A stretch of DNA of 64,000 bases from Oligoflexales bacterium (GTDB lineage: Bacteria; Bdellovibrionota_B; Oligoflexia; Oligoflexales; JALZUQ01): contig JALZUQ010000030.1 in NCBI GenBank assembly GCA_023301465.1, positions 16,903 through 80,902 of the forward strand, given 5' to 3'. How positions within the stretch are numbered: the first letter of the stretch is position 1; each line of letters begins with the position of its first letter. A program made the position numbers and the translations under genes. Below the pieces are notes generated by a model. The model ran no database searches, was not told where the DNA came from, and saw nothing but the letters and a program-made list of their open reading frames with translations. This document shows positions 1,364-63,591 of this stretch, piece after piece.

Positions 1364-2434
1364 ATGAATTTCCTAAAGGGGTTTCATCAAAACACAGCTG
1401 ATGTTGTGAGTGATGTATTCTTTGAAACCGAAACTCAACTAGACCTTCAAAAAGTTGAAGATTTTAGCTACGCATATATTTATGATGGTATAAGAAGTGG
1501 TGTAACGACCTTCAATGATCATTACTTCTTTAGCAAGGGGACCCAAAAAGCCCTTTCCAGCTTGGGAGCACGTGGTTTTTGCGGTGAAACCATTATGAAC
1601 GACGAAGGCCCCTTCCCCTACCCTTCTCAAATCACAGACAATCTATTAAAGACCATAGATAACGAACTCATATCACCGGTTTTAGCTCCACATGCTTCAG
1701 ACACAGTCAATGAGCAAACTTGGATAGAGCTTTCAAACCTATCCAAACAAAGCAATACACCTCTGCATTTTCATTTGGCTCAACGCTCTCATGAAAACGA
1801 AGTTACACAGTCTAAATACAAAAAATCACCCGTACAATTTCTTCACGATTTAAAAGTCCTAGGCCCTAATTGTATTGCCGTGCATCTCATTCATGTGGAC
1901 GAGAAAGATCAGCAGACACTTGTAGACTCCAAAACAAACTTAGTCATTTGTCCGGGCTCTCAAATTTTATTTGAACATGTGTCCCCACTACTCAAAAAAC
2001 TGCATGAAATTGATCATGTCAGTATTGCCACCGATTGTGCTGCATCAAACGATAGCTGTGATTTACTTGCTGAACTCAGACTAACTGCAAGTCTCTATAA
2101 ACAAGAGACGGGACAGTACCTATCTCCAAAAAAACTACTGAAAATGATTACCATCAACCCTGCAAAGGCATTAGGAGCAGAATCTCATATTGGAAGCATA
2201 GAGCAGTCTAAACAAGCAGACTTAGTTTTTTTAAAGAAAACCCCAAACTTTCTTCCAGAAGAAAGGCTTTTAGAGCACTTGATATTCAGTAATGCATCAA
2301 AAGACATTGAACATCTCATGGTTGCAGGAAAGCCAGTACTTAGCAACAAACAACCTGTGAATATGACGGAACAAGAAATATCAAAAAAATTCACATCAGC
2401 TTATAAAAATATAATATTTCCAAAAAATTTATAG
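1364..2434 (+). CDS. amidohydrolase superfamily protein (MtaD/SsnA-like deaminase/chlorohydrolase); true N-terminus probably upstream
   Basis: Amidohydrolase-like HLAQ, VHLIH and ATDCAASN segments. The PGFINLHTH metal motif is encoded in frame upstream of this ATG (see finding). Confidence 0.7.
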   Translation: MNFLKGFHQNTADVVSDVFFETETQLDLQKVEDFSYAYIYDGIRSGVTTFNDHYFFSKGTQKALSSLGARGFCGETIMNDEGPFPYPSQITDNLLKTIDNELISPVLAPHASDTVNEQTWIELSNLSKQSNTPLHFHLAQRSHENEVTQSKYKKSPVQFLHDLKVLGPNCIAVHLIHVDEKDQQTLVDSKTNLVICPGSQILFEHVSPLLKKLHEIDHVSIATDCAASNDSCDLLAELRLTASLYKQETGQYLSPKKLLKMITINPAKALGAESHIGSIEQSKQADLVFLKKTPNFLPEERLLEHLIFSNASKDIEHLMVAGKPVLSNKQPVNMTEQEISKKFTSAYKNIIFPKNL

Positions 2435-9709: not shown

Positions 9710-10516
9710 TCATTTGCTGGTAAACGTACCAAAAAGATCAGAATAATTCTTCCAAATTGTCTGAGCCATTTCAGCCTCGGAAATGCCTCTTATTTGTGCC
9801 ATCTCTTTAACAGTGTCTACGACATTTGCTGGTTCGTTACGTGTACCGGGAACAGGACTTAGGTAAGGTGCATCTGTTTCTGTTAGTAAGCTTGTGATGG
9901 GAAGCTTTTTAGTCATAGACTGAAAGCTTTCACTACGCTTTATGTTTGCAGGGATTGAAAACTTCCAATTGTCATGTTTTTGGGCAGCTGCTACGGCGAA
10001 CTTGGTTTTTCCACAGTAGCAATGAAAGTCGACTCTTTTTTGACCATGAACATCCAATAGCTCTATGCATCGTTTTTCTAGTTTTCTGGAGTGGATAATA
10101 ATTGGCAAATCATGGTCATAGGCAATTTCCATCAAAGCTAGAAAAACTCGTTCTTGCTCAGCAAAAGTTTCTACACCATGCCAATAACCATCTAAACCAC
10201 ACTCACCAACCGCAATAATGCGACCGTTTTTGGCTTGCTCCTTGATAAAGGCAATTTCTGCTTTTACATCAAAAACCTTTAGATTAAGCTTATCGTTATC
10301 GCATAAATGAGCGATTCCTTGGCTAGGGTATATTCCAAGTGCAGGCTTAATTTCAGGAAACTGTTTGGCTAGCTCTAAAATTTGACGATTTGACTCAGGC
10401 TCAAGACCATTGACAACAATTGCTTTTAAACCTGCATCAACTGCACGCTGAATCACCTGATGAAGATCAGGTGCGAATTTGGGGTGTGTGAGATGTGTGT
10501 GTACATCGACGTACAT
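9710..10516 (-). CDS. TatD family metal-dependent hydrolase
   Basis: MYVDVHTHL, VGECGLD and TETDAPYL motifs. Confidence 0.8.
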   Translation of the reverse strand: MYVDVHTHLTHPKFAPDLHQVIQRAVDAGLKAIVVNGLEPESNRQILELAKQFPEIKPALGIYPSQGIAHLCDNDKLNLKVFDVKAEIAFIKEQAKNGRIIAVGECGLDGYWHGVETFAEQERVFLALMEIAYDHDLPIIIHSRKLEKRCIELLDVHGQKRVDFHCYCGKTKFAVAAAQKHDNWKFSIPANIKRSESFQSMTKKLPITSLLTETDAPYLSPVPGTRNEPANVVDTVKEMAQIRGISEAEMAQTIWKNYSDLFGTFTSK

Positions 10517-29673: not shown

Positions 29674-29689
29674 TGGCACTATTATTGCT
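29674..29689 (+). promoter_or_regulatory. sigma54-type -24/-12 motif with no obvious downstream gene
   Basis: TGGCAC-TATTA-TTGCT has exact consensus spacing. It points antisense into the 3' end of 29725..31203. Confidence 0.3.
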
Positions 29690-50472: not shown

Positions 50473-51162
50473 CTAAAAAGTATAACTAGACACAAACCAT
50501 TTAGAACCACCGCCCTCTAAAGCATACTCAACCATTATATTATTATGTTCGAGGCATATCTCTTTATCTGAAAGTGTTCTATGAATTTGAACCGTGTCTT
50601 CCGTTAATTCCACTTTGAAGAAATTCTTTTCAAATTCATCTTTTTTGAACTCTACCACTTGATTTGCATACTTAATGCTTTTTACATAACCACTTTGAAG
50701 ATCATCAACTTTCCAAACATATTTTAGTATGTGTTCTTTTTCATATAAATCACTTGTATAAGTCTCATCAACTTTTTCTCTTAAGGCCTTAATTGCTTTA
50801 ACAAGATGATTTACCTGAAACCCTTTGTAGGCAACAGCCTGCTGGATACATTTCATGTATTTTATAATTTCAGCCCAATATATCATGGCTTGAGAGTACT
50901 TTGTTCTAACTTCCAAGCATCTTGGCCTATACTCACGATAATCAAAATCATCCACAAGACCCGGTAAATCTAATTGCGGCCTAAGGTATGATTGGTCATA
51001 ACGCCCCATTAAAGAAGATATAATTCGATCAGAGTCGCTTAAGTTTTTTATGGCATGTTCAAGAGGTTTTTGTTCTAAATAAGGCTCAAAAAATATATGC
51101 TGTCCAAACACACTACTAGAAAAGACAAAAAACAATAAAAGATTAAGTACCTTCACTTTCAC
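50473..51162 (-). CDS. hypothetical secreted protein (gene 5 of operon)
   Basis: Signal peptide MKVKVLNLLLFFVFSSSVFGQ. 20-nt overlap with the upstream gene. Confidence 0.5.
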   Translation of the reverse strand: MKVKVLNLLLFFVFSSSVFGQHIFFEPYLEQKPLEHAIKNLSDSDRIISSLMGRYDQSYLRPQLDLPGLVDDFDYREYRPRCLEVRTKYSQAMIYWAEIIKYMKCIQQAVAYKGFQVNHLVKAIKALREKVDETYTSDLYEKEHILKYVWKVDDLQSGYVKSIKYANQVVEFKKDEFEKNFFKVELTEDTVQIHRTLSDKEICLEHNNIMVEYALEGGGSKWFVSSYTF

Positions 51163-51688
51163 CCTCCCCTAATTTTGCAACTTTTCTTTGAAGCCTCACT
51201 AGTCTTGCAGCGGAAAGACGGTGGGTTAAGCTTGAAAAAAACAGACTTTCTTGCACACTAAGTTCACCTTTATTATAGCGGTCAACATATTTTTTTATTT
51301 CCAGTAACTTTTCAATTTTTGCAATTAAAGTCGTTAACTTTCTAGAACTTAAATCATTGTACACAAACCTAATATTCTCTAATGTGGGTTGTTTCATATA
51401 ATCTACGCTCTGATTAAAAACTTGAACAAGCCTCACATCAAGATCCGCAGCGGTTAGTTTGTTTTTGCGACTCTTTTTTAATTCTGTTGCAGAATCTACT
51501 TTTTGATACCTTGCGTCTTCCAAAACCTTATTGTTTTTTGATTTTAGATCATTGATTTGGTTGTTTTTATGAGCATACTCACTAACCCCTACTTTAGTCT
51601 TCCCACTATCATCATGATCTTGAACCTTATAAATCACCGACAAGACAACTATCACAGCAAAAATTGATGTTAAAAAATACGTCTTCAT
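51143..51688 (-). CDS. hypothetical membrane-anchored protein (gene 4)
   Basis: N-terminal TM segment. 4-nt overlap with the upstream gene. Confidence 0.5.
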   Translation of the reverse strand: MKTYFLTSIFAVIVVLSVIYKVQDHDDSGKTKVGVSEYAHKNNQINDLKSKNNKVLEDARYQKVDSATELKKSRKNKLTAADLDVRLVQVFNQSVDYMKQPTLENIRFVYNDLSSRKLTTLIAKIEKLLEIKKYVDRYNKGELSVQESLFFSSLTHRLSAARLVRLQRKVAKLGEGESEGT

Positions 51689-51993
51689 GATTTTCCCTCC
51701 ATATACTTTATAATCTCAGTTGATTCAGACTTTGAAGGAGCACACTTTTGGCTCCGCTCAGATAATATTTTCATATATTCATAGTAGTTACTATTGCCTT
51801 GAGCTTGCTTCAATTCATTTAACTCCCCCTTGAAGCAAATAAACTCAAAAGCTGCCTTTTTGGAATCACTAGTTGGAGTTTCTAAAACAACATTAGGTGT
51901 TTTTTGACTCTCAAACCTATTCTCATCACTTCCACAACTAGGCAAAAAAATCGTACTTATGAATAGTAAAACTTTAAAGTCTAAGTTGCACAT
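51685..51993 (-). CDS. hypothetical lipoprotein (gene 3)
   Basis: Lipobox IFLPSCG. 20-nt overlap with the upstream gene. Confidence 0.45.
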   Translation of the reverse strand: MCNLDFKVLLFISTIFLPSCGSDENRFESQKTPNVVLETPTSDSKKAAFEFICFKGELNELKQAQGNSNYYEYMKILSERSQKCAPSKSESTEIIKYMEGKS

Positions 51994-52909
51994 TGATCTC
52001 TCCTTCTAATGATCCCGGCTCACGTGGAAGAGCTTTGATCATTGCTTTAAGACTTGAGTAGGTTTTCAAACTTAAATCATCACGAGTAAATTTAAACAAT
52101 GTTTTTAAAGCAGTTTTATCGTCTAACTGTGGTTTTGAGGCTATATACTTGCCTACTAGCAACCCAAACACAGTCGCTTTTTCAATAGACCCATACTCCT
52201 TAATATGATCATTCACGATGTCCATTTTTTTGTAGAGATCATAATATGTTTCAGCTTTTTCGATTGGCATATTTAATTGATATTGATAATCAACTTTTTT
52301 GACAACTGAAAGACTGATTTTATCTTTTTCTAACTCACAATATTGAAGTTTATTTAATAAGACCTTATCATTTTCACTTTTTACTTCTAGAACATCTTGT
52401 TGAAGCTTTAAACCATCTAAAGCAGTGCTCCACTTACTTGATCTGTTTACTAGCCTATATGAAGATTGCTGATCAGAGCTAATTTCAGCCGACGCCAAAG
52501 AAATCGTTTCTTTTTCTACATTTTTTTGAAATGCTATCGTATCAATCCTCGGCAGCCTTGAGATTTGGACATCTCCACTACTCAATTCAATATATTGAGG
52601 ATTTGAAAATCCAAAAGTTGAAATTTCTTGATCCCAAATTAAATCATATAATTTTGTTTTTAATGAATAACAACTATTCACATTTTTGTCTGAACGTTTA
52701 CATATTCTTACACGTGCTTCTAAATCCTCTAATCCTCTATAAAGCAATTTACAGTTTGGAGATTTATTGATTGTTTCCAATAGAATGCCACCTGACTTAG
52801 GTAACGCTATGTATTGATCACCGGATTTCTGGAGTAAATATGATGATTTATTTTGTGCATTTAATGCAAAACTAAACATACACAGGTAAATAATAACTAA
52901 ATTCTTCAT
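51974..52909 (-). CDS. hypothetical secreted protein (gene 2)
   Basis: Signal peptide MKNLVIIYLCMFSFALNAQ. Confidence 0.5.
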   Translation of the reverse strand: MKNLVIIYLCMFSFALNAQNKSSYLLQKSGDQYIALPKSGGILLETINKSPNCKLLYRGLEDLEARVRICKRSDKNVNSCYSLKTKLYDLIWDQEISTFGFSNPQYIELSSGDVQISRLPRIDTIAFQKNVEKETISLASAEISSDQQSSYRLVNRSSKWSTALDGLKLQQDVLEVKSENDKVLLNKLQYCELEKDKISLSVVKKVDYQYQLNMPIEKAETYYDLYKKMDIVNDHIKEYGSIEKATVFGLLVGKYIASKPQLDDKTALKTLFKFTRDDLSLKTYSSLKAMIKALPREPGSLEGEINVQLRL

Positions 52910-52920
52910 GACTTTCCTTT

Positions 52921-52951
52921 CAAAATTGGCCTACGCGGTATTGCATAGGCC
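52921..52951 (-). terminator. intercistronic hairpin/attenuator after the first operon gene
   Basis: Minus strand GGCCTATGC-AATAC-GCGTAGGCC (9 bp, one G-U) followed by AATTTTG. Confidence 0.4.
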
Positions 52952-52958
52952 GGATTAA

Positions 52959-54635
52959 CTATCTTTGGAAACTAACGCTATCTGACAACCAGAAATACTC
53001 TGAACCATTCATTTTCTCTGTAGCAGTGAAATTTGTTCGGTTGACATAGGTGTTTTCTACCGTAGAACTACCAAACATTGAATTTAGTGATTTAAACATC
53101 CAACCCGCAGCCTTACAGTAGATATTAATCTTTCCGCAAGTATCATTGATACCGTTTGCTAATACCATAGCCCCGGTTTCTGGTGCTGGGCCTGCATCTG
53201 GCATTTTAGCTGGTGCCACGCGAGTTGCTAATGAGTCCAGTATTCTCGCAACGACTTCTTTTCGCATCTTTACCTCTACAGTTGCACGATCATCCGTATT
53301 ATAGCTACTGCCCGGATCCCAATGAAACTCTATAGTGCTGTTTTTACGTGTATCTTCAATCACTGAAGCCGCAGACTTAGATGAGAAAAAACGTCTTTTC
53401 TTTTTATGTTTTTTAATAAGTGTATAAATCTTACTAGTGTTGTAAGTCATCGAAAAATCAAAATCAAACTTTGATTCATACTGGTAGTTCACTGAAAAAC
53501 CAAATTTATGAAAGTTTAAATCATCTAACTCTGGTTGATCATCAAGACCATCATAAAAATACTTATCTAACTTTCCACAAGTTGAAAGCAAACTCATTCG
53601 AAAGTCGCCACTCACCAATGCGTGAATAGCACTCTTTGTATGTTTTACTTTTTTGTCTCCAAAAGCGTCTAGCTCTACTTCAATGTCACCTTTTGCAACA
53701 CGCGGCATCCCACTTACATTGTAATCAAGCACGGAAGGCATACTACTCAGATAGTTTTCATTTTTTACGAAATCTAAATGAAAATTAAGATCAACGTTAT
53801 ATGTTGAAATTGGTTTAAAGTTAAACTCTGGGTACTTAGCTTGAAGTGAGGCAATAACTTCTTCCCACCTAGTCTCATAGTCAATTGCAGCCCAACCACC
53901 TTCTGTAACAGCGTCTACAGAGAACATCTCCATAAACTCAGCTCTCAAAGCGATCAGTTTACTGATTCTTTGAGCGTAAGGAGCAGAATAACTGTCTACA
54001 ACCCCTTGAGCTTGCTCAAGCCTACGCTCAGCTTTTTCAAATTCTCTAGCGATTACTTTGTTTTCTTTTCTTAGTTCGCGGTAAATGCTCTGATTATCTC
54101 GGAGAGTCTGCAATAAATCCGTATAACGCACTGATAGTTCACTACAACCTTGCTTACATTCATTTAACTCCTCGCCTACTTCTGTAAGTAAGTTGTTTGT
54201 GTCATCTATCTCTCTTTTTGCAGCTAATAGCTTTGCAGTCTCAGGTCTTGCTGATACTTCACCTAATAGTTCCCTAGCAATATTCTCTTTTTGAATAGCA
54301 GCATCAAGTAGGTGCTTATAATCATCTGCTCTCTCAGTAGCTTTCTTGATTTGATTTGTAACAGATGCACTTGCATCCAAAATTGTCTTCGCTTGACTAC
54401 AACGAGTTTTTAAAAATGGATCGTTAACGTCAGCTGAAAAGCTCTTTACTACTACTCTTCCTGTTTTTGGTGGCTTTACCCAAACTTGTTTGTTGGTATT
54501 AAACTCATGATCAGGAACAACCTCTGCTTCTGGTGAGTCCACTTTAAATCCAATTAATCCTTTCGCATATGGCGATGGTGCTGCTGAAATATACGCACTA
54601 CATACCAAACCGAGAGTAACCATGTACTTCTTCAT
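52959..54635 (-). CDS. hypothetical secreted coiled-coil protein, 558 aa (gene 1)
   Basis: Signal peptide, long heptad-like central region, AGAGGGGG SD. Confidence 0.55.
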   Translation of the reverse strand: MKKYMVTLGLVCSAYISAAPSPYAKGLIGFKVDSPEAEVVPDHEFNTNKQVWVKPPKTGRVVVKSFSADVNDPFLKTRCSQAKTILDASASVTNQIKKATERADDYKHLLDAAIQKENIARELLGEVSARPETAKLLAAKREIDDTNNLLTEVGEELNECKQGCSELSVRYTDLLQTLRDNQSIYRELRKENKVIAREFEKAERRLEQAQGVVDSYSAPYAQRISKLIALRAEFMEMFSVDAVTEGGWAAIDYETRWEEVIASLQAKYPEFNFKPISTYNVDLNFHLDFVKNENYLSSMPSVLDYNVSGMPRVAKGDIEVELDAFGDKKVKHTKSAIHALVSGDFRMSLLSTCGKLDKYFYDGLDDQPELDDLNFHKFGFSVNYQYESKFDFDFSMTYNTSKIYTLIKKHKKKRRFFSSKSAASVIEDTRKNSTIEFHWDPGSSYNTDDRATVEVKMRKEVVARILDSLATRVAPAKMPDAGPAPETGAMVLANGINDTCGKINIYCKAAGWMFKSLNSMFGSSTVENTYVNRTNFTATEKMNGSEYFWLSDSVSFQR

Positions 54636-54713
54636 TTTAAAACCCCCTCTTTCTTCGGTATTGAACCGACATAAAAATTAGTTAACGTGATGTTGATCAA
54701 CACAATTCTTATT

Positions 54714-54728
54714 ACAATTGCCGTGCCA
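54714..54728 (-). promoter_or_regulatory. sigma54-like -24/-12 element upstream of 52959..54635
   Basis: Minus strand TGGCACG-GCAA-TTGT has consensus spacing with one mismatch (TTGT for TTGC), about 80 nt upstream of the ATG. Confidence 0.35.
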
Positions 54729-54787
54729 CTGTTTCTTAGAAAACATTTCAAGTATATTTCACGAGTTATCAGCCTGTAGTTTTTAGT

Positions 54788-54826
54788 TGAGTCTCACCGA
54801 GTCTCACCGAGTCTCACCGAGTCTCA
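54788..54826. repeat. tandem 10-bp repeat, GAGTCTCACC x3.9
   Basis: Read directly: gagtctcacc gagtctcacc gagtctcacc gagtctcac. Confidence 0.95.
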
Positions 54827-54839
54827 CATAAAAAAATAT

Positions 54840-54859
54840 AGTCTCATATTTTTTGAGAC
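54840..54859. promoter_or_regulatory. inverted repeat AGTCTCA-N6-TGAGACT (candidate operator or UAS)
   Basis: Perfect 7-bp arms. Shares the 13-mer TATAGTCTCATAT with 57207-57219. Confidence 0.5.
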
Positions 54860-54995
54860 TGTTAGAATTTTTTTTCATCAAATCAAATTGATTCAAAAAA
54901 AATTAAAACTGGAATTTTGTACAATTAAAAAAATAAATTTTAGTTGAACCATTGAAAAAAAATTTATAGCTTTGTAAAAACCAAGGAGAAAAAAC

Positions 54996-56147
54996 ATGGC
55001 ACACAAATCTTTTTTAATAAAAATATTGATCTTACTTTTACTTAACATTTCTTGCGGAAAAGAGCTAAAAGACAAAAACCTAGGCAAAAAAAAATTTGAA
55101 AATAAATACTCAACGCATACAGACGACGACAGAAACATAAATAAAAACCAAGAAAAACCAGTCATCAACGACAACAAAAAAAATCAGAACAACTCACCAT
55201 TATATAAAAATAAATTTATTGAAGACGAATCAATTGTAGACAGGGAAGATGAAATACAAAAGAAGAAGCAAAGCATAAAACAAAATTGTTACATATTACA
55301 CGCACCACGACACGAAAGTTTTTCAGATAAACAATTCAAAATTACCAACCCAGAAGAAGGCAGTAGCTTTACGATAGAAGTCAATTCAGTTCATAGCAGC
55401 CTTTTATATATTAATATTGAAACTAAAAACGATGAAAGCCTACACACACTTATTCGTCAAAAAGACCTAAATTTTCTTGCAAACAAGTTTACCTTATTAA
55501 CATCTATAAAAAAACGCACCATAGAATCCAAGCCATTAGTTTTGCACAATCTTGATAAACTTTTAAACTCCTTGGACACCAACACACGTGTTAGTAACTT
55601 CAATAAATTAACTAATCACGAAATCGAAAACATCATACTATTTATCAAATACACAACCAAGAACATAAATGGATTACACAGAATCATAGAAAGCGAAACA
55701 ATATACAAACGCAACGCTAAAAAAACACAAGACAATATAGTCTTGAAGTTAAACACCTACCTTGCACACACAACTTTTGATAAAAATAAATCACATGTGT
55801 TTATTGATTCCACCTACTCAGACGACAATGGATTTCATATAGCAGTGGACAAAGATGGTAATAAAGTATATATAACAGCCTATCTAAAAAATTCTAAATT
55901 TTTTATTTTATCCGCTAATCATCATAAACTTACTTTTTTCTCAGACTTATTTTTAAAACATTCATTGAACAATGACACAAGAGAATCCATTGACTTATTA
56001 ATACAGCATTTAATAAAACTGACTCATTCAACTGACAGGTATTCTTTTTTAGAATATTTCTATGGTTTATCCGATGAAGATATAAAAAGAATGATTCATT
56101 ACATTAAATTTGTAGATCAGCATAAAAATGAGTTCGTTGAAAAATAG
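54996..56147 (+). CDS. modular lipoprotein, 383 aa, two internal repeat modules
   Basis: Lipobox LLNISCG and AAGGAGA SD. Each half ends in an L[TS]xx[DE]I[EK]x[IM]xx[FY]IK[YF]-like motif. Confidence 0.6.
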   Translation: MAHKSFLIKILILLLLNISCGKELKDKNLGKKKFENKYSTHTDDDRNINKNQEKPVINDNKKNQNNSPLYKNKFIEDESIVDREDEIQKKKQSIKQNCYILHAPRHESFSDKQFKITNPEEGSSFTIEVNSVHSSLLYINIETKNDESLHTLIRQKDLNFLANKFTLLTSIKKRTIESKPLVLHNLDKLLNSLDTNTRVSNFNKLTNHEIENIILFIKYTTKNINGLHRIIESETIYKRNAKKTQDNIVLKLNTYLAHTTFDKNKSHVFIDSTYSDDNGFHIAVDKDGNKVYITAYLKNSKFFILSANHHKLTFFSDLFLKHSLNNDTRESIDLLIQHLIKLTHSTDRYSFLEYFYGLSDEDIKRMIHYIKFVDQHKNEFVEK

Positions 56148-56287
56148 TAAAACCTTTAACTAGAATTCGGCTTTGCAGGACACTTTGAGTTCACAAAACC
56201 AATCTTACACGACATGAAAAATTTACGAGACTGCCATTTTACAGTTCCAAAACATTAATTTCTCTAAAAATTAATTCTATAATTCAC

Positions 56288-56302
56288 GAGACTTGTCTCA
56301 CC
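56288..56302. promoter_or_regulatory. GAGAC-TT-GTCTC palindrome (GAGACTTGTCTCACC)
   Basis: Same half-sites as the 54788-54859 and 57200-57217 elements, 57 nt upstream of the ATG at 56359. An extra CGAGACT half-site lies at about 56226. Confidence 0.4.
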
Positions 56303-56358
56303 ATTAATAGTCACATCGTTAACAGAACTACTATCATTAGAAAGCAAAAGGAGAAAAA

Positions 56359-57062
56359 CATGAAGCATAAAAAATTAATTTTCAAAACAGTTACACTACT
56401 TTTTTTAAATGCATCTTGCGGCGACAACCCTAAAGAAAAATTTAAAAATACAAAAAAACTAAAACAAATTATTCATCCAGCACAGAACCAGAAAACACAA
56501 TCAAAGAAAAAAGCGAGAACAGTGAAGAGAACGAAATAAACGGCAATATTCAACAACAAATTGAAACCCCCATAGGCAATTATGAAGGCTACGATTATGA
56601 AGACACAGGTTACGAGGAGAAAAAATAAAAAAAAATAAAAAAAAAAATAGCTTTACATTAAAATCCCCTGTTTTTGGAATATACTCAATAAAAGATTTCA
56701 CCATCACAAACACAGAAAAAAACACTAAATTTATGATACACACCACTCTAAATGAAAACCCATTTTTATTGATACGCATAACAGATGAATCAAACAAAAA
56801 AAGCACATTAGGGATACACCTAAAAAACCTTGCCTTCTTTATAGATGGATTTATTAAGCATTTAACCATTAAAGAGCAGGCTTTAGTTTCTGCTCAGTTA
56901 ATTTTACAAAACATCAATATTTTGCTCAACTCAACCGATTACGATGATCTCGAAAACAACTTCAATAAGTTCAACAATGATGACATAAAAAACATTGAAC
57001 AATACCTTCAATATATAGAAAAAAATGAAAATGATTTATATGCATTTAAACCAGCAGAATAA
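56359..57062 (+). pseudogene. frameshifted paralog of lipoprotein 54996..56147
   Basis: Same SD (AAGGAGAAAAAC-ATG) and lipobox (FLNASCG). The reading frame breaks at least 3 times. The C-terminal module (56601-57062) is paralogous. Confidence 0.55.
56620..56647 (+). repeat. homopolymeric tract A6-T-A9-T-A11 inside the disrupted lipoprotein gene
   Basis: Read directly from the sequence. It coincides with one of the frame changes. Confidence 0.95.
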
Positions 57063-57080
57063 TGATACACAACACAAACG

Positions 57081-57112
57081 CTTTGTAGGAGAATCACTAA
57101 GAGCCTACAAAG
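57081..57112 (+). terminator. hairpin after the disrupted lipoprotein gene
   Basis: CTTTGTAGG-N14-CCTACAAAG, a perfect 9-bp stem with a weak U tract. Confidence 0.4.
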
Positions 57113-57199
57113 CTGCTCTTACACTAGATTTAGGTAAGCCAATCAACATTTCATAGACCCTAATAGTTTGATTTTTATGAGAAATATAGCCTAGCAAAA

Positions 57200-57217
57200 A
57201 TGAGACTATAGTCTCAT
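57200..57217. promoter_or_regulatory. perfect 18-bp palindrome ATGAGACTATAGTCTCAT
   Basis: Read directly. About 110 nt upstream of the EamA gene start. Confidence 0.5.
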
Positions 57218-57327
57218 ATAACGCCTAAATATCTCAATAATATAAAGTGTTTGACACGATTCACCATAAAGACATACAACCCAAGAATGCACTGACTTTG
57301 TGCCAATGTAATCACTGAGGTTCCACC

Positions 57328-58266
57328 ATGAAAAAAGACACCAAAAATGACCAAATGGCATTCTTATTTGGAGTGCTTGCAAACACATTATGGGCCACCT
57401 CATTTCTCGCATCAAAATACACTCTTGAAACATGGGGTCCTTTTTCATCATCATTTTTTAGATTTATTCTCGCCTCGATATTAATGATTTGTTTGTATCC
57501 GTTTATAGGTCTAGAACTCAAATTTCCAAATAAAAAAGAATGGGCACCAATTCTCTTGGTGGCGTTGTTTCAGTTTGGTTTACTATATCCGCTACAGCTA
57601 TATGGATTAGAGTATTTGGATACTTCGGTTTCTGCCGCTATCATGCTCATATCACCGTTATTTGTTATCTCATTAGCCGGCATGCTCTTGTCTGAAGTTA
57701 TCACCATACAAAAAGTTTTAGCTATCCTGATAGGGATCATTGGTGGACTCGTTCTTTTTGGAGAACACATTTTCCAAAACAACAGCTACACCAAGGGATT
57801 ATTACTTACATTTTCAGCGGCACTTTGCCTAGCAATCTCCATTGTATTAACCAGAAAATACGGAAAAAAAATCGAGACTTCACATTTAACCTTGTGGTCA
57901 ATGATCATTGGAAGCTTTTTACTGTTCCCATTTTTTCTATCGGAGCCTCAAACCAAAGACGGGTTAGTGTTTAGTTGGAGTAATCATAAACAATCCATCA
58001 CTGCATTATTCTATTTATCAATCGTTTGCTCAGCTTTTACATTCTACATTTGGAACAAAGCACTCAAAATGACAGAAGCAAAAAACCTTGCCAGCACGAT
58101 GCATTTAAAGACACCTGTTGCTATCATCATTGGCGTTATTATTGCAAAAGAAGAACTTTCGACATCTATTATTCTTGGAACGATCATTATTTTTCTTGGG
58201 GTTTGGTTCTCTCAAGCAAAAATTAATAATTCTATCCTTTTAAAAAAGATAAAAGGAAGAAACTAA
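57328..58266 (+). CDS. EamA/DMT family transporter
   Basis: 10-TM pattern with two EamA-like halves. Confidence 0.75.
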   Translation: MKKDTKNDQMAFLFGVLANTLWATSFLASKYTLETWGPFSSSFFRFILASILMICLYPFIGLELKFPNKKEWAPILLVALFQFGLLYPLQLYGLEYLDTSVSAAIMLISPLFVISLAGMLLSEVITIQKVLAILIGIIGGLVLFGEHIFQNNSYTKGLLLTFSAALCLAISIVLTRKYGKKIETSHLTLWSMIIGSFLLFPFFLSEPQTKDGLVFSWSNHKQSITALFYLSIVCSAFTFYIWNKALKMTEAKNLASTMHLKTPVAIIIGVIIAKEELSTSIILGTIIIFLGVWFSQAKINNSILLKKIKGRN

Positions 58267-58352
58267 TATGCAACAACTTATTATGACCAAAAACTTAAAA
58301 TCAAAATGAACCATTTACACGTAGTGAGATACTACATAAGGAAGGACCTAAC

Positions 58353-59060
58353 ATGCTAGAAATTAACCTTGGAAGCCAAAGCAGGACATATAGTCCAGCT
58401 CCATTATATCAGACTGACTTTGCTCCTGACCTCGTGATAGAGGTTACCAGTATCTGTGACCGAGCATGCCATGGGTGTTATGCAAACAATATCCTTGCAA
58501 AAGGTGACAAAGCAACTGTTGCAAAAAAATTTCCGCAACTATTTCTCAAGTTATCAGACTTAACCTCAAATCTTCATGCCTTAGAAACTTCTCCCGCCTC
58601 TCTATCATTTCGCGGGGGAGAGCCAACGAGACACCCTGAACTCCACCGAATACTTGAAATTGCATCGAGCAGTACACCTTCGAAAAAAAACTACTTAGAG
58701 ACCCACGGTCGTTGGCTATTTAATGATGATAACAAAGACCTCTTAGATGCTATTGCCAAAACGGGCACCATTGTCAAAATATCCCATGACTCAATGCACG
58801 AACTTTCGACAGAAGACCTAAAAAAAATAACCGACTTATTAATATCAAAAGACATTGAATTCCTCATTGCCATTACTGAGAACAGCTATAATGAGTTTTT
58901 AAAATGTAGAAATGATATTGCATTTGTTCAAAATGAAAAAATCGTCTTTCAACAAAAGGCACAGTTTGACCACGAGCTTTTAAAACCAAAAATTGGTGTT
59001 ATTTCTTGTGATGGAACTTTAAAGAAAACACTCAACTCAAAGATAGGCTTTAAAAAATAA
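58353..59060 (+). CDS. small radical SAM domain protein
   Basis: CDRACHGC (CxxxCxxC) cluster motif and FRGGEPT SAM-binding motif. Confidence 0.6.
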   Translation: MLEINLGSQSRTYSPAPLYQTDFAPDLVIEVTSICDRACHGCYANNILAKGDKATVAKKFPQLFLKLSDLTSNLHALETSPASLSFRGGEPTRHPELHRILEIASSSTPSKKNYLETHGRWLFNDDNKDLLDAIAKTGTIVKISHDSMHELSTEDLKKITDLLISKDIEFLIAITENSYNEFLKCRNDIAFVQNEKIVFQQKAQFDHELLKPKIGVISCDGTLKKTLNSKIGFKK

Positions 59061-59061
59061 T

Positions 59062-60201
59062 ATGAACAAAATTGCTATCATCATATTCTTTATTCTTAGT
59101 CATCATGCACTTGGCAAAAAAATCCGAGTTGGCATTGCATCGAATTTTTCAAAAATAAGTTCCAGTGCCTCAAATCCTTACGGCAACTACTTTAGAGACG
59201 CTATCTACCTTGCTCTTTCACAAAAAAAGAAAAACTTGAAAAAAAAGAACATTGAAATTGAATTAGTTGAATTTGATTACGGAGACTCTAAACTTGCTGT
59301 ACTTAAATCTGCAAATAATGCATGTGCCTCAGATGTATCGGTTGTGATTGGTTATGGTTTTTCAAGCCATGCATTACTTGCTGCCCCCATTCATGAAAAA
59401 TGCAAACTTAGCATGATCACTCCTACAGCAACTGCAGACAGTCTCAGCAAATTTGAAAAATACGTCCATAGAGGCTCTTTTGATAACGCTTACCAAGGTG
59501 AGACATTGGCAAAGCTTGTAAAAAGCTGGAACAAAAAAAGCAAAGCTATTATTATAAGCATTGCTGACTGTGCTTACTGCCAAGACTTAGCAAAAGCCTT
59601 CGAAACGCAATACTCTAAACTAGGCGGTGAAACTTTAAAACATTACAGGACTTTGGATAACGAAAAAGACATTCAAAAATTAGTTTCAAAACTAGAAAAA
59701 AACTCCTTTGATGTCGTTGTTGTACCAAATCACGAGTTGGTTTCTGCAAGTATATTAGAAGCTGTATCTAGAGAACACCCGAACGCTGTGTTTTTAGGGG
59801 GCGATGGATGGGGAGATATCGGACAACAAATTAAATCTGTTGTTAAAGAACGCCATATAAAGCGGTACTGGGTCACCCATTGGCTTAAAGCTATCAATAC
59901 AAAAAAAATAAATGGTTTTATTAAAGCATATCAAAAAATGTTTATGAAATCACCAAACGAAACATCAGCACTGACATACGACAGTATGAATATCCTCATA
60001 AACGCAATCATGAACTCTAAAAACCACTCCAGAAAATCCATAGAAAACTCATTAAAAAAAATAAAGTTTCACAATGGAGTTACCGGCGACTTCATATTCA
60101 GAAGCAAAAGAGCACCCAAGAAAAGCATAGTTTTGTTAGAAAACCACTTAGGAACTAATAGATTAGTCAAGATCATCAACCCAACAAAAAGCATACCATG
60201 A
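59062..60201 (+). CDS. periplasmic ligand-binding protein (LivK/Peripla_BP_6-like)
   Basis: Signal peptide. Type I periplasmic binding protein (PBP)-like pattern (VIGYGFSSHALLAAP, GGDGWG). Confidence 0.65.
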   Translation: MNKIAIIIFFILSHHALGKKIRVGIASNFSKISSSASNPYGNYFRDAIYLALSQKKKNLKKKNIEIELVEFDYGDSKLAVLKSANNACASDVSVVIGYGFSSHALLAAPIHEKCKLSMITPTATADSLSKFEKYVHRGSFDNAYQGETLAKLVKSWNKKSKAIIISIADCAYCQDLAKAFETQYSKLGGETLKHYRTLDNEKDIQKLVSKLEKNSFDVVVVPNHELVSASILEAVSREHPNAVFLGGDGWGDIGQQIKSVVKERHIKRYWVTHWLKAINTKKINGFIKAYQKMFMKSPNETSALTYDSMNILINAIMNSKNHSRKSIENSLKKIKFHNGVTGDFIFRSKRAPKKSIVLLENHLGTNRLVKIINPTKSIP

Positions 60202-61574
60202 GCAAATCGCTGAGAGAAAAAATCAATAAAATTACTGTTCAATCTACAGTAGCAATTATTTCTCTCACCATTATTATTGTTTGTGCTTACTGGTTTATGA
60301 TTAAAGAAGCCTCATTGAAAGAAGTGAGCAATATCCTGCTACAGAACTCTGAAACACAAAAAACTAATTTGATACCATCCATCATTCTAGAAGAACAAAA
60401 AATTGGCATTAACTTACTTCTCAATAAAATCAAACAAGTAGAAAACCTGTCTTCCATAAAATTGATCAAAAAGGACCAAAGCACCATTCAATCAGAGTGT
60501 TTCTTGAGAGAAAAAGGTTATTATGAATGCCCTAACTCCCCCAGCACACTAAAACTTGCCATACCTATTAACTACGGTAACGCTGAATTTGGTTTTTTGG
60601 TAAAAGAAAAAGAAATTGAATCTATTGTATCTGGAAACCGAGTTATTATCGTTTCATTATTTGCGATTGCATTATTCTTAATTTTCTCCATGACATTATT
60701 AAAATCTTTTAAAAGACTTACTGCCACAGAAATCCCAAACTCCCTTGATCAGCTTGTCTGTTTTGTGGATGGTTGGTTAAAAGGCAATGACATAAACATA
60801 GAAGGCAACATTCAATTCTCTGAGTTTCAAGAGCTCGCAGCCACGATTAAAGAAGTTTTTAAAATATACGAAACAAAGCGAAACCAAGCAATTGTCGGTC
60901 AAATTTCAAGTGGAATACTCCATGATATTAGAACGGATTTACAATCAATATTAGCAGCACATTGCTTAATTAGCGAAGCTACAGCAGAAGGTAAAGACCA
61001 TAAAATAGAGAAACTAAACAAAAACCTTTTTAACGTACTCGAAAGAAAACTTCCGCACCTTGTCAGTGTTGTAGAAACCACCTTAGATGTGAATAGAGAG
61101 ATCTCTCTTGACCCTAAGTTTGAGTGCTTGAACAAAACTATTCATAGCTCTATTTCAAACCTTGAAAACTCTATCTCTAAGCTCGATGCTAAAATCAACA
61201 TTCATACTCCTAAAAACAGCATTAAGGCTTATCACGACCCTGTTCAAATCAAGAGAGTGATGCGAAACCTTATCAGAAACTCCTTACAAGCGATCACAGA
61301 GAACACTGACAAATTAATTCATATCTTCCTAGAAGAAACCAATTACAATATCAAAATTCGATTAGAAGACAATGGCAGTGGCATAACACTAAAAAAACAT
61401 GATTTATTTAAGGCTTTTAAGTCTGGAAAAGGTAAAGAAGGCACCGGGCTTGGCCTATTTAACTCCATGCAAATCATAAACGCACATGGCGGCTCTATCA
61501 AGTTTGTAAAACCTAGCATTTTAACCGGTGCATGCTGTGAAATAATGTTACCAAGAGGGGATTTTCATGAGTAA
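60198..61574 (+). CDS. sensor histidine kinase
   Basis: Two TM segments, H-box SSGILHDIRTDL, and an ATPase domain with DNGSGI and GTGLGL. Confidence 0.75.
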   Translation: MSKSLREKINKITVQSTVAIISLTIIIVCAYWFMIKEASLKEVSNILLQNSETQKTNLIPSIILEEQKIGINLLLNKIKQVENLSSIKLIKKDQSTIQSECFLREKGYYECPNSPSTLKLAIPINYGNAEFGFLVKEKEIESIVSGNRVIIVSLFAIALFLIFSMTLLKSFKRLTATEIPNSLDQLVCFVDGWLKGNDINIEGNIQFSEFQELAATIKEVFKIYETKRNQAIVGQISSGILHDIRTDLQSILAAHCLISEATAEGKDHKIEKLNKNLFNVLERKLPHLVSVVETTLDVNREISLDPKFECLNKTIHSSISNLENSISKLDAKINIHTPKNSIKAYHDPVQIKRVMRNLIRNSLQAITENTDKLIHIFLEETNYNIKIRLEDNGSGITLKKHDLFKAFKSGKGKEGTGLGLFNSMQIINAHGGSIKFVKPSILTGACCEIMLPRGDFHE

Positions 61575-62931
61575 ACTAAAGCCAAAAGTACTTGGAATAG
61601 ATGACGATGTCAGTTGGCTAGAACAGCTAAATCTTATCCTTGAAGATGATTGTATGGTCTGTGGAGCTGACACAATTGAAAAAGGCCTTAACATCATCAA
61701 TGATAATTTTTTTGATATTATTATCTTGGATCTAAATTTTAATGATGAAGAAAAATCTGGCTTAGACATCTTAAAAGTCATCCATGCCATGGATCAGGGT
61801 GTGGATGTCGTTGTTATCAGCGGTGAAACAGATTACCGAAAAATCATTAAGGTTATTGACTCAGGGGTCACTAAATTTATTCCAAAACCAGCAACACCTG
61901 AAAAGATCAGATCTGCGATACAAGAAATCATCACAAAACGTGAAAGTAAACGAAGAGCCTTAGCTCATATTGGAAACGACTCTCAAAACCCATTTATTGG
62001 AAGCTCACCGCTTATTTATAAGCTAAGAGAAGACATTCAAAGTATTATTGACTCAGGAACAAAAGATATCCTCATTCAAGGTGAGTCCGGAACAGGAAAA
62101 GAGCTTATAGCACAATGCATCGCCAACAGCTCAGATCGCTTTGGAAGAATGGTGTCAGTGCATTGCGGAGCTATATCTGACTCATTAGCAGAGTCTGAAC
62201 TCTTTGGTCATGAAAAAGGAGCTTTTACAGGAGCCAATACAAACCGCGTTGGCGTCTTTGAAGCCGCTAAAGGTGGGTTTGTATTTTTGGATGAAATTGG
62301 AGAAATGCCACTTTTGCAACAAGCCAAACTTTTGCGTGTCATACAAGAAAGAAAAATTAGGCCCGTTGGAAGCAGCATCGAAAAACAAATTAATTTTCGA
62401 AGCATATCAGCTACGAATAGAAATATTGAACAAGAAGTACAAAAAGGTAATTTTCGTGAAGACTTATTCTACCGAATCGCTAAAGAAACCATTTCTGTTC
62501 CACCGTTAAGAGAACGAAGAGAAGACATACCTGAATTAGTTTATTATTTTCTACAAAAAGAAGCTCAAGGTAAAAAAATAGATGTTTCTATGGACGCAAT
62601 GAGAATGCTACAAGCATATACATGGAAAGGCAATGTCAGGGAACTCATCTCTGTAGTCTATAAAATCACATCCAGACTCAAAGAAGGCACCATCAAAGAA
62701 AAGCATGTCTGCCAAGCCCTACCACAATTTGCAAATTCATTTTCGAAGTCTTATGTCCGCAAAAAAGTGAGAATCTTTAATACCGAATCAGCATTAGAAA
62801 AAAAACGTTTTGAAGAGGCTATTTTGCAAGCTGGGGGAAACAGGACAAAAGCAGCTGAGATACTAAATATATCTAGAGCAACTTTTTTTAGGAAAGCTAA
62901 ATCCCTTGGGCTTGTTAATTCTAGAGTTTAG
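61567..62931 (+). CDS. sigma54-dependent response regulator (NtrC family enhancer-binding protein)
   Basis: Receiver domain, GESGTGKE Walker A, GAFTGA sigma54-contact loop, C-terminal Fis-type HTH. Confidence 0.85.
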   Translation: MSKLKPKVLGIDDDVSWLEQLNLILEDDCMVCGADTIEKGLNIINDNFFDIIILDLNFNDEEKSGLDILKVIHAMDQGVDVVVISGETDYRKIIKVIDSGVTKFIPKPATPEKIRSAIQEIITKRESKRRALAHIGNDSQNPFIGSSPLIYKLREDIQSIIDSGTKDILIQGESGTGKELIAQCIANSSDRFGRMVSVHCGAISDSLAESELFGHEKGAFTGANTNRVGVFEAAKGGFVFLDEIGEMPLLQQAKLLRVIQERKIRPVGSSIEKQINFRSISATNRNIEQEVQKGNFREDLFYRIAKETISVPPLRERREDIPELVYYFLQKEAQGKKIDVSMDAMRMLQAYTWKGNVRELISVVYKITSRLKEGTIKEKHVCQALPQFANSFSKSYVRKKVRIFNTESALEKKRFEEAILQAGGNRTKAAEILNISRATFFRKAKSLGLVNSRV

Positions 62932-62964
62932 TATGCTTAAATCTTCAATAAAAAAGGAAGAATT

Positions 62965-63591
62965 GTGAATTTTAATTACCAAGCCTCATCACAAATTCAA
63001 GATTTATCCAGAAATCACTATCTACTACGTAAAGCAAGTAAAGAAGATATAAAAATCGTGACAAACCTGATCCGAGAATCTTATCAGCACTGGGTTGCTG
63101 TTGGGTTAAAGGTTAGGCCTGCATTTCAGACGGAAGAAACTACTGAGACTCACCTCTTGAATGGTGGGATGGTTCTTGAAAAAAAAGACCATGAAATCGT
63201 TGGTACATTTAGCTTTGACACTGCTAAAGTCACCCATCAAGATTCTTTCTTGATGGCAGATTATACCAATCCTTCTGAACATGTAGAATACGCCCCAAAA
63301 CTTGAGACCAACCAGCAATCTATAGACGGTAAATACCTTGTCTTTAAAAAGCTAGCTATCTCTCCTAGCCTACAAAAAGCTGGCCTAGGCAGAAAGCTTT
63401 ACGATTTTGCTGAGGAGTATGGGCGTACCAAGGCGTTTAAGGGAATGATGCTTGAAACTATCGTTGAAGCTGATTGGTTGTATCAGTGGTATATCAATAT
63501 GGGTTTTGAGGTGATTGGGGGTGTTACTTATGCTGGGTCTGAGATTGAGACTTTATTGTTACGAAAATTTTTTGATAGAAAGAATAACTAG
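62965..63591 (+). CDS. GNAT family N-acetyltransferase
   Basis: LAISPSLQKAGLGRKLYDFAEEYG motif A. GTG start with AAGGAAG SD. Confidence 0.6.
   Translation: MNFNYQASSQIQDLSRNHYLLRKASKEDIKIVTNLIRESYQHWVAVGLKVRPAFQTEETTETHLLNGGMVLEKKDHEIVGTFSFDTAKVTHQDSFLMADYTNPSEHVEYAPKLETNQQSIDGKYLVFKKLAISPSLQKAGLGRKLYDFAEEYGRTKAFKGMMLETIVEADWLYQWYINMGFEVIGGVTYAGSEIETLLLRKFFDRKNN

Follow-up and report, generated by a model that had tools for sequence, protein, structure and literature searches.

Three neighbouring intergenic regions in a contig of Oligoflexales bacterium (GenBank assembly GCA_023301465.1, contig JALZUQ010000030.1) contain repeated copies of the heptamer TGAGACT or of its reverse complement, AGTCTCA, including a 10-bp tandem array and a perfect palindrome. 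What are these words for? The original prediction, made from a stretch of 64,000 nucleotides of this contig (positions 16,903 to 80,902 of the forward strand, here called the window), offered two answers, namely, operators or upstream activating sequences (UAS) of one regulator that defines a local regulon or, alternatively, a small repeat resembling a miniature inverted-repeat transposable element (MITE). The window is chromosomal (it encodes MutL, MiaA, and MurB) and has a GC content of 36.5%. We consider it probable that the TGAGACT/AGTCTCA words are half-sites of a single transcription factor, the best candidate being a sigma-54 response regulator of the NtrC family, whose gene occupies 61567-62931, about 4 kb from the sites.

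Half-sites in the window and in relatives

Reading of the sequence from 54300 to 57700 recovered the five elements on which the original prediction was based, with coordinates shifted by 1 nt (Table 1), and every element was located between open reading frames (ORFs), as had been claimed. The everted pair is present, although its two half-sites are separated by 7 nt rather than by 6 nt. Tandem Repeats Finder (TRF) assigned to the array of GAGTCTCACC a period of 10, 3.9 copies, 100% matches, and a score of 78. The four direct AGTCTCA half-sites of this array start at 54790, 54800, 54810, and 54820, i.e., one per helical turn. The 13-mer TATAGTCTCATAT occurs identically at 54837-54849 and 57207-57219.

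The word AGTCTC[AG] was found 19 times on the two strands of the window, with 10 copies in the three intergenic regions, which account for 837 nt or 1.3% of the window (binomial P = 1e-14). Collapsing the array to a single count left 7 of 16 copies in these regions (P = 7e-10). The earlier statement that the motif does not occur elsewhere in the window did not hold, since seven further exact AGTCTCA copies were detected. These copies correspond to chance density, shuffled sequences giving 8.4 +/- 2.9 copies across the whole window, and none of the seven formed a cluster or a palindrome in the 64 kb.

Relatives were retrieved by homology to the EamA exporter encoded downstream of the palindrome (35 to 61% protein identity), and the resulting contigs carry the same six-gene operon as the window. 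Scanning of the GTDB species genomes with an alignment of EamA provided 27 loci, which did not include the genome of the window itself; nearly all of them belong to the Bdellovibrionota, mostly as metagenome-assembled genomes of Bacteriovoracaceae or Oligoflexia. A 16-bp palindrome, searched as TGAGAC[T/A]-NN-[A/T]GTCTCA with at most one mismatch within 320 nt 5' of EamA, was present in 21 of the 24 loci for which upstream DNA was available, over a GC range of 37 to 60%. Outside the EamA upstream regions, there was one match in 327,748 nt, and this lone background match is itself located within a sigma-54 enhancer cluster. The site is thus conserved alongside the activator across genomes (21 of 24 loci versus 1 background match in 328 kb), the regulator gene being present in the loci that extend far enough downstream. 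As judged by sequence comparison, the palindrome at 57200-57217 is the orthologue of the conserved palindrome of the relatives. Its preservation over such a range of base composition constitutes a phylogenetic footprint and therefore points to a protein-binding DNA site rather than to a mobile repeat.

The organization of the control region is also shared. The common layout in relatives comprises two palindromes 20 bp apart, of which the second is often degenerate, followed by TTGAC. Most relatives have an extra half-site eight bases past this element (TTGAC-N8-AGTCTCA), inside the promoter spacer. The window retains the first palindrome and TTGACA (57251-57256), and what is left of the second palindrome is ATCTCA. 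Of the 25 upstream regions displayed, 23 contain TTGAC 5' of EamA; locus L030 is an exception, and locus L004 has TTGACA. The putative sigma-70-like promoter of the EamA operon is proposed from this cross-genome conservation alone, since a scan for the sigma-70 consensus did not pick up its TTGACA-N16/17-ATACAA sequence.

The variable spacing of the half-sites, which had been regarded as odd, is real and is likewise observed in the relatives, where N0, N1, and N2 dyads and direct repeats coexist. The half-site therefore appears to be the recognition unit. Clustered sites of relatives (n = 159) define the consensus (A/T)GTCTC-A without strong flanks, and all 11 half-sites of the window fit this consensus. 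The variant with a G (AGTCTCG on the other strand, as at 56226-56232) accounts for 13% of the half-sites in relatives. Arrangements of the clusters in relatives include ++--+, +++---, N1 dyads, and 7-bp overlapping repeats. We propose that the 10-bp array of the window is a lineage-specific route to more half-sites, in which one site was tandemly duplicated. The extended similarity and the dispersal that characterize a MITE were both lacking: similarity between copies ends at 7 to 13 nt, the copies are fixed in place across genomes, and the rest of the 64 kb contains no clusters. The small-repeat alternative was abandoned on these grounds. A reading of the words as GANTC (CcrM-type) sites or as GTCTC restriction sites was also rejected, since GANTC arises only when the variable spacer supplies a G.

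Half-site clusters at sigma-54-type promoters

The six half-sites formed by the array and the everted pair are located 61 to 132 nt upstream of the -24 element of a sigma-54-type promoter, TGGCACGGCAATTGTA, with a gap of 61 nt, an arrangement expected of an enhancer, whose repeated sites are typically found roughly 80 to 150 bp upstream of the promoter. TGGCACGGCAATTGTA differs from TGGCACG-N4-TTGCW at a single position, its spacing being GG-N10-GT (GT in place of GC at -12), and is one of only 3 sites with at most one mismatch to the sigma-54 consensus in 64 kb. A -24/-12 promoter was found for the leftward operon only, none being detected at the EamA or lipoprotein genes of the window. The array puts four sites on one helix face, and we propose that it forms the promoter-proximal part of an enhancer (UAS), as deduced from its sequence and position.

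Twelve relatives contain a second cluster of 2 to 6 half-sites located 47 to 79 nt upstream of TGGCAY-N3-5-TTG[CT]A, directly before a gene. In the inspected loci, L003 and L005, this cluster follows the six-gene operon, whereas that of the window is on the opposite side. L003, whose regulator is the closest to that of the window among those aligned (64% identity), has TGGCACAGCACTTGTA, nearly identical to TGGCACGGCAATTGTA, behind a half-site cluster of its own. The gene that comes after this cluster encodes a signal peptide ending in AAPSPYSK, compared to AAPSPYAK for the protein of the window.

The spacing of the -24 and -12 elements, which is usually regarded as fixed in sigma-54 promoters, varies among these loci. 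The window and L003 display the canonical spacing but have TTGTA at -12. Ten genomes have TGGCAY-N4-TTGCA (GG-N9-GC), which is 1 bp short of the canonical GG-N10-GC (L005 16468, L008 16494, L009 17714, L010 15698, L012 8992, L013 12446, L018 16755, L020 7003, L021 7756, and L025 19083), and L016 (15686), with an N3 spacer, is 2 bp short. Either RpoN tolerates or prefers a shorter spacer in these bacteria or the elements work differently. The study of Francke et al. 2011 (PMC3162934) contains nothing on promoter spacing.

In several of these genomes, the 5' leader contains an extra conserved (A/T)GTCTCA half-site just ahead of the ribosome-binding site, 38 to 41 nt past the TGG of the sigma-54-like promoter (L008 ~16532, L009 ~17753, L010, L012 ~9031, L013 ~12485, L018 ~16796, and L025 ~19122). 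This leader half-site is absent in the window. A separate near-consensus sigma-54 promoter, TGGCACTATTATTGCT, occupies positions 29674-29689 of the plus strand of the window. It is intergenic, with a minus-strand ORF on either side, and has no TGAGACT sites nearby.

The 558-aa protein encoded downstream of TGGCACGGCAATTGTA has a single database homologue, P0075 (30% identity), encoded by locus L035 from a freshwater metagenome. P0075 heads an operon of genes without Pfam families, is preceded by a sigma-54 promoter, and is located beside a different sigma-54 activator. The L035 operon is divergent from that encoding the regulator, which also comprises genes for SBP_bac_5, YcaO, and a kinase. 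The locus contains the dyad GTCGGAATCCGAC twice (9791-9803 and 9826-9838) and the canonical promoter TGGACCAGCCATTGC (9938-9952). The association of another activator with another dyad argues that this type of operon is an activator target and that the sequence of the site follows the neighbouring activator.

The candidate regulator and competing explanations

The proposal of operator or UAS sites for one regulator defining a local regulon is supported by the 21 conserved palindromes, by the half-site clusters upstream of sigma-54-type promoters, and by the adjacent NtrC-family activator gene. The product of this gene contains a Response_reg domain, a Sigma54_activat domain (1.6e-59), and a C-terminal helix-turn-helix (HTH) of the HTH_8 family (4.4e-08) according to Pfam, and its sequence has the GAF[TS]GA motif; it thus combines the sigma-54-interacting AAA+ module (GAFTGA) with a DNA-binding domain, as required of an activator. 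Sigma-54 promoters need an activator of this family, and in the gene lists of L003 to L007 no DNA-binding protein other than the regulator is shared by the neighbourhoods. It scored below every NCBIfam equivalog cut-off (285 bits versus 559 for ntrC and 273 versus 800 for LuxO). The half-site variant TGAGACA/TGTCTCA is present in L009, L010, L012, L013, L017, and L019. Among these loci, those with an alignable regulator (L009, L012, L013, and L017) have the HTH sequence SRATFY..A[T/S]ELGLIQ versus SRATFF..AKELGLV in the others. L030, used as a negative control, lacks the motif and encodes a regulator with only 30% identity.

The binding protein is inferred, and so are its signal, the points where transcription starts, and the direction in which the regulator acts. 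In the mechanism that we propose, a ligand would be sensed by the LivJ-like periplasmic protein and the coupled membrane histidine kinase encoded in the six-gene operon, and the kinase would phosphorylate the regulator. The regulator would assemble on the six half-sites at 54790-54860, comprising four direct repeats in helical phase and the everted pair, and, from about -85 to -160, would activate the sigma-54 promoter at 54728->54713 by ATP hydrolysis, leading to leftward transcription of the five-gene operon. For autoregulation, it would also bind the 16-bp palindrome, which is found at about -78 relative to the sigma-70-like promoter proposed for its own operon, and it probably binds the sites beside the second lipoprotein promoter. 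In both places, its effect could be of either sign. The regulator probably controls the ORFan lipoprotein genes as well.

Several observations weigh against this assignment. The promoters of EamA and of the lipoprotein genes are not of the sigma-54 type, so the activator would act there as a classical operator-binding protein. The -12 element of the window is TTGTA and not TTGCA, the shortened -24/-12 spacing in the ten relatives and in L016 raises some doubt as to how these promoters function, and rpoN is outside the 64-kb window. In addition, the covariation of the HTH and the motif amounts to roughly one evolutionary event, since it is confined to probably one clade. The words might also be genuine operators bound by another factor encoded elsewhere, the adjacent sigma-54 regulator using other, unrecognized sites. 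The sigma-70-like appearance of the EamA-operon promoter would suit such a factor, as would the half-site of TTGAC-N8-AGTCTCA that most relatives have within its spacer, which is a classical position for a repressor. In addition, a fixed HTH dimer is not usually associated with half-sites so variably spaced. We nevertheless regard this alternative as unlikely, because 13 loci have half-site clusters at the distance of an enhancer from a sigma-54-type promoter, because no other DNA-binding gene was seen travelling with the sites, and because the motif variant tracks changes in the HTH of the regulator, L035 providing a parallel in which another dyad is paired with another activator.

According to another explanation, the words are parts of a small mobile or recombination repeat (MITE or att-like), and a 2.37-kb lipoprotein cassette of low GC content was inserted, its two ends being marked by the 13-mer. 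The 13-mer does bracket a segment of 28 to 31% GC (54800-57200), compared to 36 to 40% in the flanks, which holds only ORFan lipoprotein genes, and relatives have no genes between the control region of the EamA operon and its sites. The lipoprotein segment may have arisen by insertion into a control region that was once continuous, or by duplication within it. As an origin of the words themselves, however, a mobile repeat is very improbable: identity ends at 13 nt, the words are kept at orthologous promoter positions in about 20 genomes without the cassette, the ORFs between 33.7 and 64 kb that were scanned with Pfam included no recombinase or transposase, and the copies are not dispersed in the window. 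It is hardly credible, in turn, that the elements act as RNA hairpins, whether as bidirectional terminators, attenuators, or a small RNA with GAGUCUCACC repeats. A terminator scan flagged both strands at 54838-54862 and the minus strand at 57217-57200, and the energies of the predicted folds are -8 to -12 kcal/mol (z-scores, -2.3 to -4.6). These signals are a by-product of the palindromes. The elements are located between divergent gene starts and 5' of promoters rather than after genes, relatives keep the sequence and not the pairing, a 2-nt centre cannot form a loop, direct repeats and single half-sites cannot fold, and no match was found in Rfam. The stems contain 3 GC pairs and do not qualify as intrinsic terminators. 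Finally, an addition compatible with binding by the NtrC-family regulator would be that the array is a contingency locus, in which slippage alters the number of sites or the distance and phase to the promoter, thereby switching expression between cells. The array is a perfect 4-unit repeat in the divergent control region of surface or secreted proteins, and an A-rich tract breaks the neighbouring paralogue. We find this addition quite unlikely, since four 10-bp units are short for efficient slippage and since the only independent assembly of the same DNA, Logan contig L001, which is identical to the window, also has 4 units.

Gene context and relation to known systems

Table 1. Half-site elements, promoters, and genes of the window (strand given as in the analysis;. 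denotes no orientation)
Feature	Position	Strand	Remarks
Sigma-54-type promoter TGGCACGGCAATTGTA	54728->54713	-	Faces the 558-aa gene
10-bp tandem array, GAGTCTCACC x3 + GAGTCTCACA as fourth unit	54789-54828 (54789-54827 by TRF)	.	Sequence reading, TRF
Everted pair AGTCTCA-N7-TGAGACT	54840-54860	.	Half-sites 5 and 6 of the cluster
Single half-site CGAGACT	56226-56232	.	
Abutting pair CGAGACT-TGTCTCA(CC), CGAGACTTGTCTCACC	56287-56302		58-73 nt 5' of second lipoprotein ORF
Perfect 18-bp palindrome ATGAGACTATAGTCTCAT, A-TGAGACT-AT-AGTCTCA-T	57200-57217	.	
ATCTCA, right-half remnant of second palindrome	57231-57236		Same +20-bp register as relatives (by-eye comparison with L011, L015, L016, L017)
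Sigma-70-like promoter of EamA operon, TTGACA-N16/17-(C)ATACAA	57251-57279	+	By-eye alignment; -10 tentative
Five-gene operon, signal-peptide proteins without Pfam family (558, 311, 102, 181, 229 aa)	50473-54635	-	Proposed target of the activator
ORFan lipoprotein gene, 383 aa, same domain twice	54996-56147	+	Possible additional target
Second lipoprotein paralogue, split	56360-57062	+	Signal-peptide ORF 56360-56539, domain frame 56649-57062
Six-gene operon: EamA exporter, radical SAM, periplasmic binding protein, histidine kinase, sigma-54 response regulator, GNAT	57328-63591	+	
NtrC-family response regulator: receiver + sigma-54 AAA+ (GAFTGA) + Fis-type HTH	61567-62931	+	Candidate half-site binder

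The genes that flank the sites are listed in Table 1. The ATG codon of the 558-aa gene is at 54635 on the minus strand, and the five-gene operon that it heads is the proposed sigma-54 target, on the basis of the promoter and sites described above. The 383-aa lipoprotein had no homologue other than itself among 5.8e9 proteins. Its paralogue is divided by an A-rich tract with stop codons (56620-56647), the frame at 56649-57062 being 32% identical to residues 98 to 234 of the 383-aa protein; this paralogue is either a pseudogene or a slippage-prone switch.

The periplasmic binding protein of the six-gene operon is LivJ-like, and the histidine kinase is membrane bound and translationally coupled to it. 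An exact-protein look-up of the 312-aa EamA ORF returned no match, since gene calling places the start farther downstream. Three homologues of the region from 57328 to 59060 (P0049, P0067, and P0071) combine the EamA exporter and the radical SAM enzyme in one polypeptide. Such fusions argue for a common function of the first two genes of the operon.

The genetic organization resembles that of the enteric NtrC (NRI) protein, which acts at an enhancer of glnAp2 and at operators of glnAp1 and glnLp. Both involve a sigma-54 activator that belongs to a two-component system, has a Fis-type HTH at its C terminus, and is associated with several dyads roughly 80 to 150 bp upstream of a -24/-12 promoter, and the sigma-70 promoters of its own regulatory operon are also bound, as proposed here for the window. 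The sites differ, TGAGACT-N2-AGTCTCA in the window versus TGCACC-N5-GGTGCA for NtrC, and unlike those of NtrC the half-sites described here also occur as direct repeats, as N0 or N1 dyads, and as an everted pair. The input would come from the periplasmic binding protein and membrane kinase instead of NtrB and PII, and the targets are secreted ORFan proteins. A periplasmic binding protein and a membrane kinase signalling to a sigma-54 response regulator, with dyads at sigma-54 promoters, are also found in the LuxP/LuxQ-LuxO circuit of Vibrio. In contrast to LuxO circuits, neither a phosphorelay protein nor small-RNA targets were seen here, the LuxO model was matched below its cut-off, as reported above, and the operon additionally encodes an exporter, a radical SAM enzyme, and a GNAT protein. 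The array itself is reminiscent of the pho boxes of PhoB, with four direct half-sites in a 10-bp phase on one helix face. However, pho boxes are bound by winged-helix regulators of the OmpR family at sigma-70 promoters, whereas the candidate of the window is an AAA+ protein whose HTH is of the Fis type, and its half-site occurs in several arrangements besides the direct array.

To our knowledge, little has been established about how Bacteriovoracaceae and other Bdellovibrio-like predators regulate their genes. A literature search on Bdellovibrio and sigma-54 retrieved no description of this system, and a search with the motif words returned only primer and microRNA noise. Sites of two-component sigma-54 regulators, whether enhancers or operators, are a known kind of gene switch, of which no description for this group was found in the literature searched. 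The locus offers a concrete putative regulon, with a 7-bp half-site, a candidate regulator and sensor, a sigma-54 target promoter, and homologue-less secreted proteins and lipoproteins as candidate targets, which may mediate contact with prey or surfaces. Three features go beyond the routine: the half-site array, which would be an enhancer built by tandem duplication of a single half-site; the conserved module of exporter, radical SAM enzyme, GNAT protein, and sensor; and the sigma-54-like promoters that are 1 bp short in ten relatives. A broader and tentative reading, to which we assign a low probability, is that the six-gene unit is a self-contained circuit of Bacteriovoracaceae that makes, exports, and senses a small molecule in a quorum-sensing-like manner, its outputs being lineage-specific secreted and surface proteins controlled through about six freely arranged half-sites and, in ten relatives, through short-spaced target promoters. 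In such a circuit, the boxes of the regulator in the promoter of the six-gene operon would give feedback.

Copies of the array were also sought in other DNA. A scan of viral contigs for two array units gave one match, assumed to be due to chance, and a scan of metagenomes for the array with its flank gave no match. Three array units were found in metagenomes in two unrelated contexts, L038 and L039, neither of which appears to be related to the Bacteriovoracaceae system. In L038, AGTCTCA-aa-AGTCTCACCGAGTCTCACCGAGTCTCAC is located at 1882-1925 (minus strand) in the divergent promoter region of genes encoding XRE-type HTH proteins, within a phage-like element. In L039, a metagenome contig, positions 1400-1510 are occupied by a degenerate array of about 12 units, i.e., a minisatellite.

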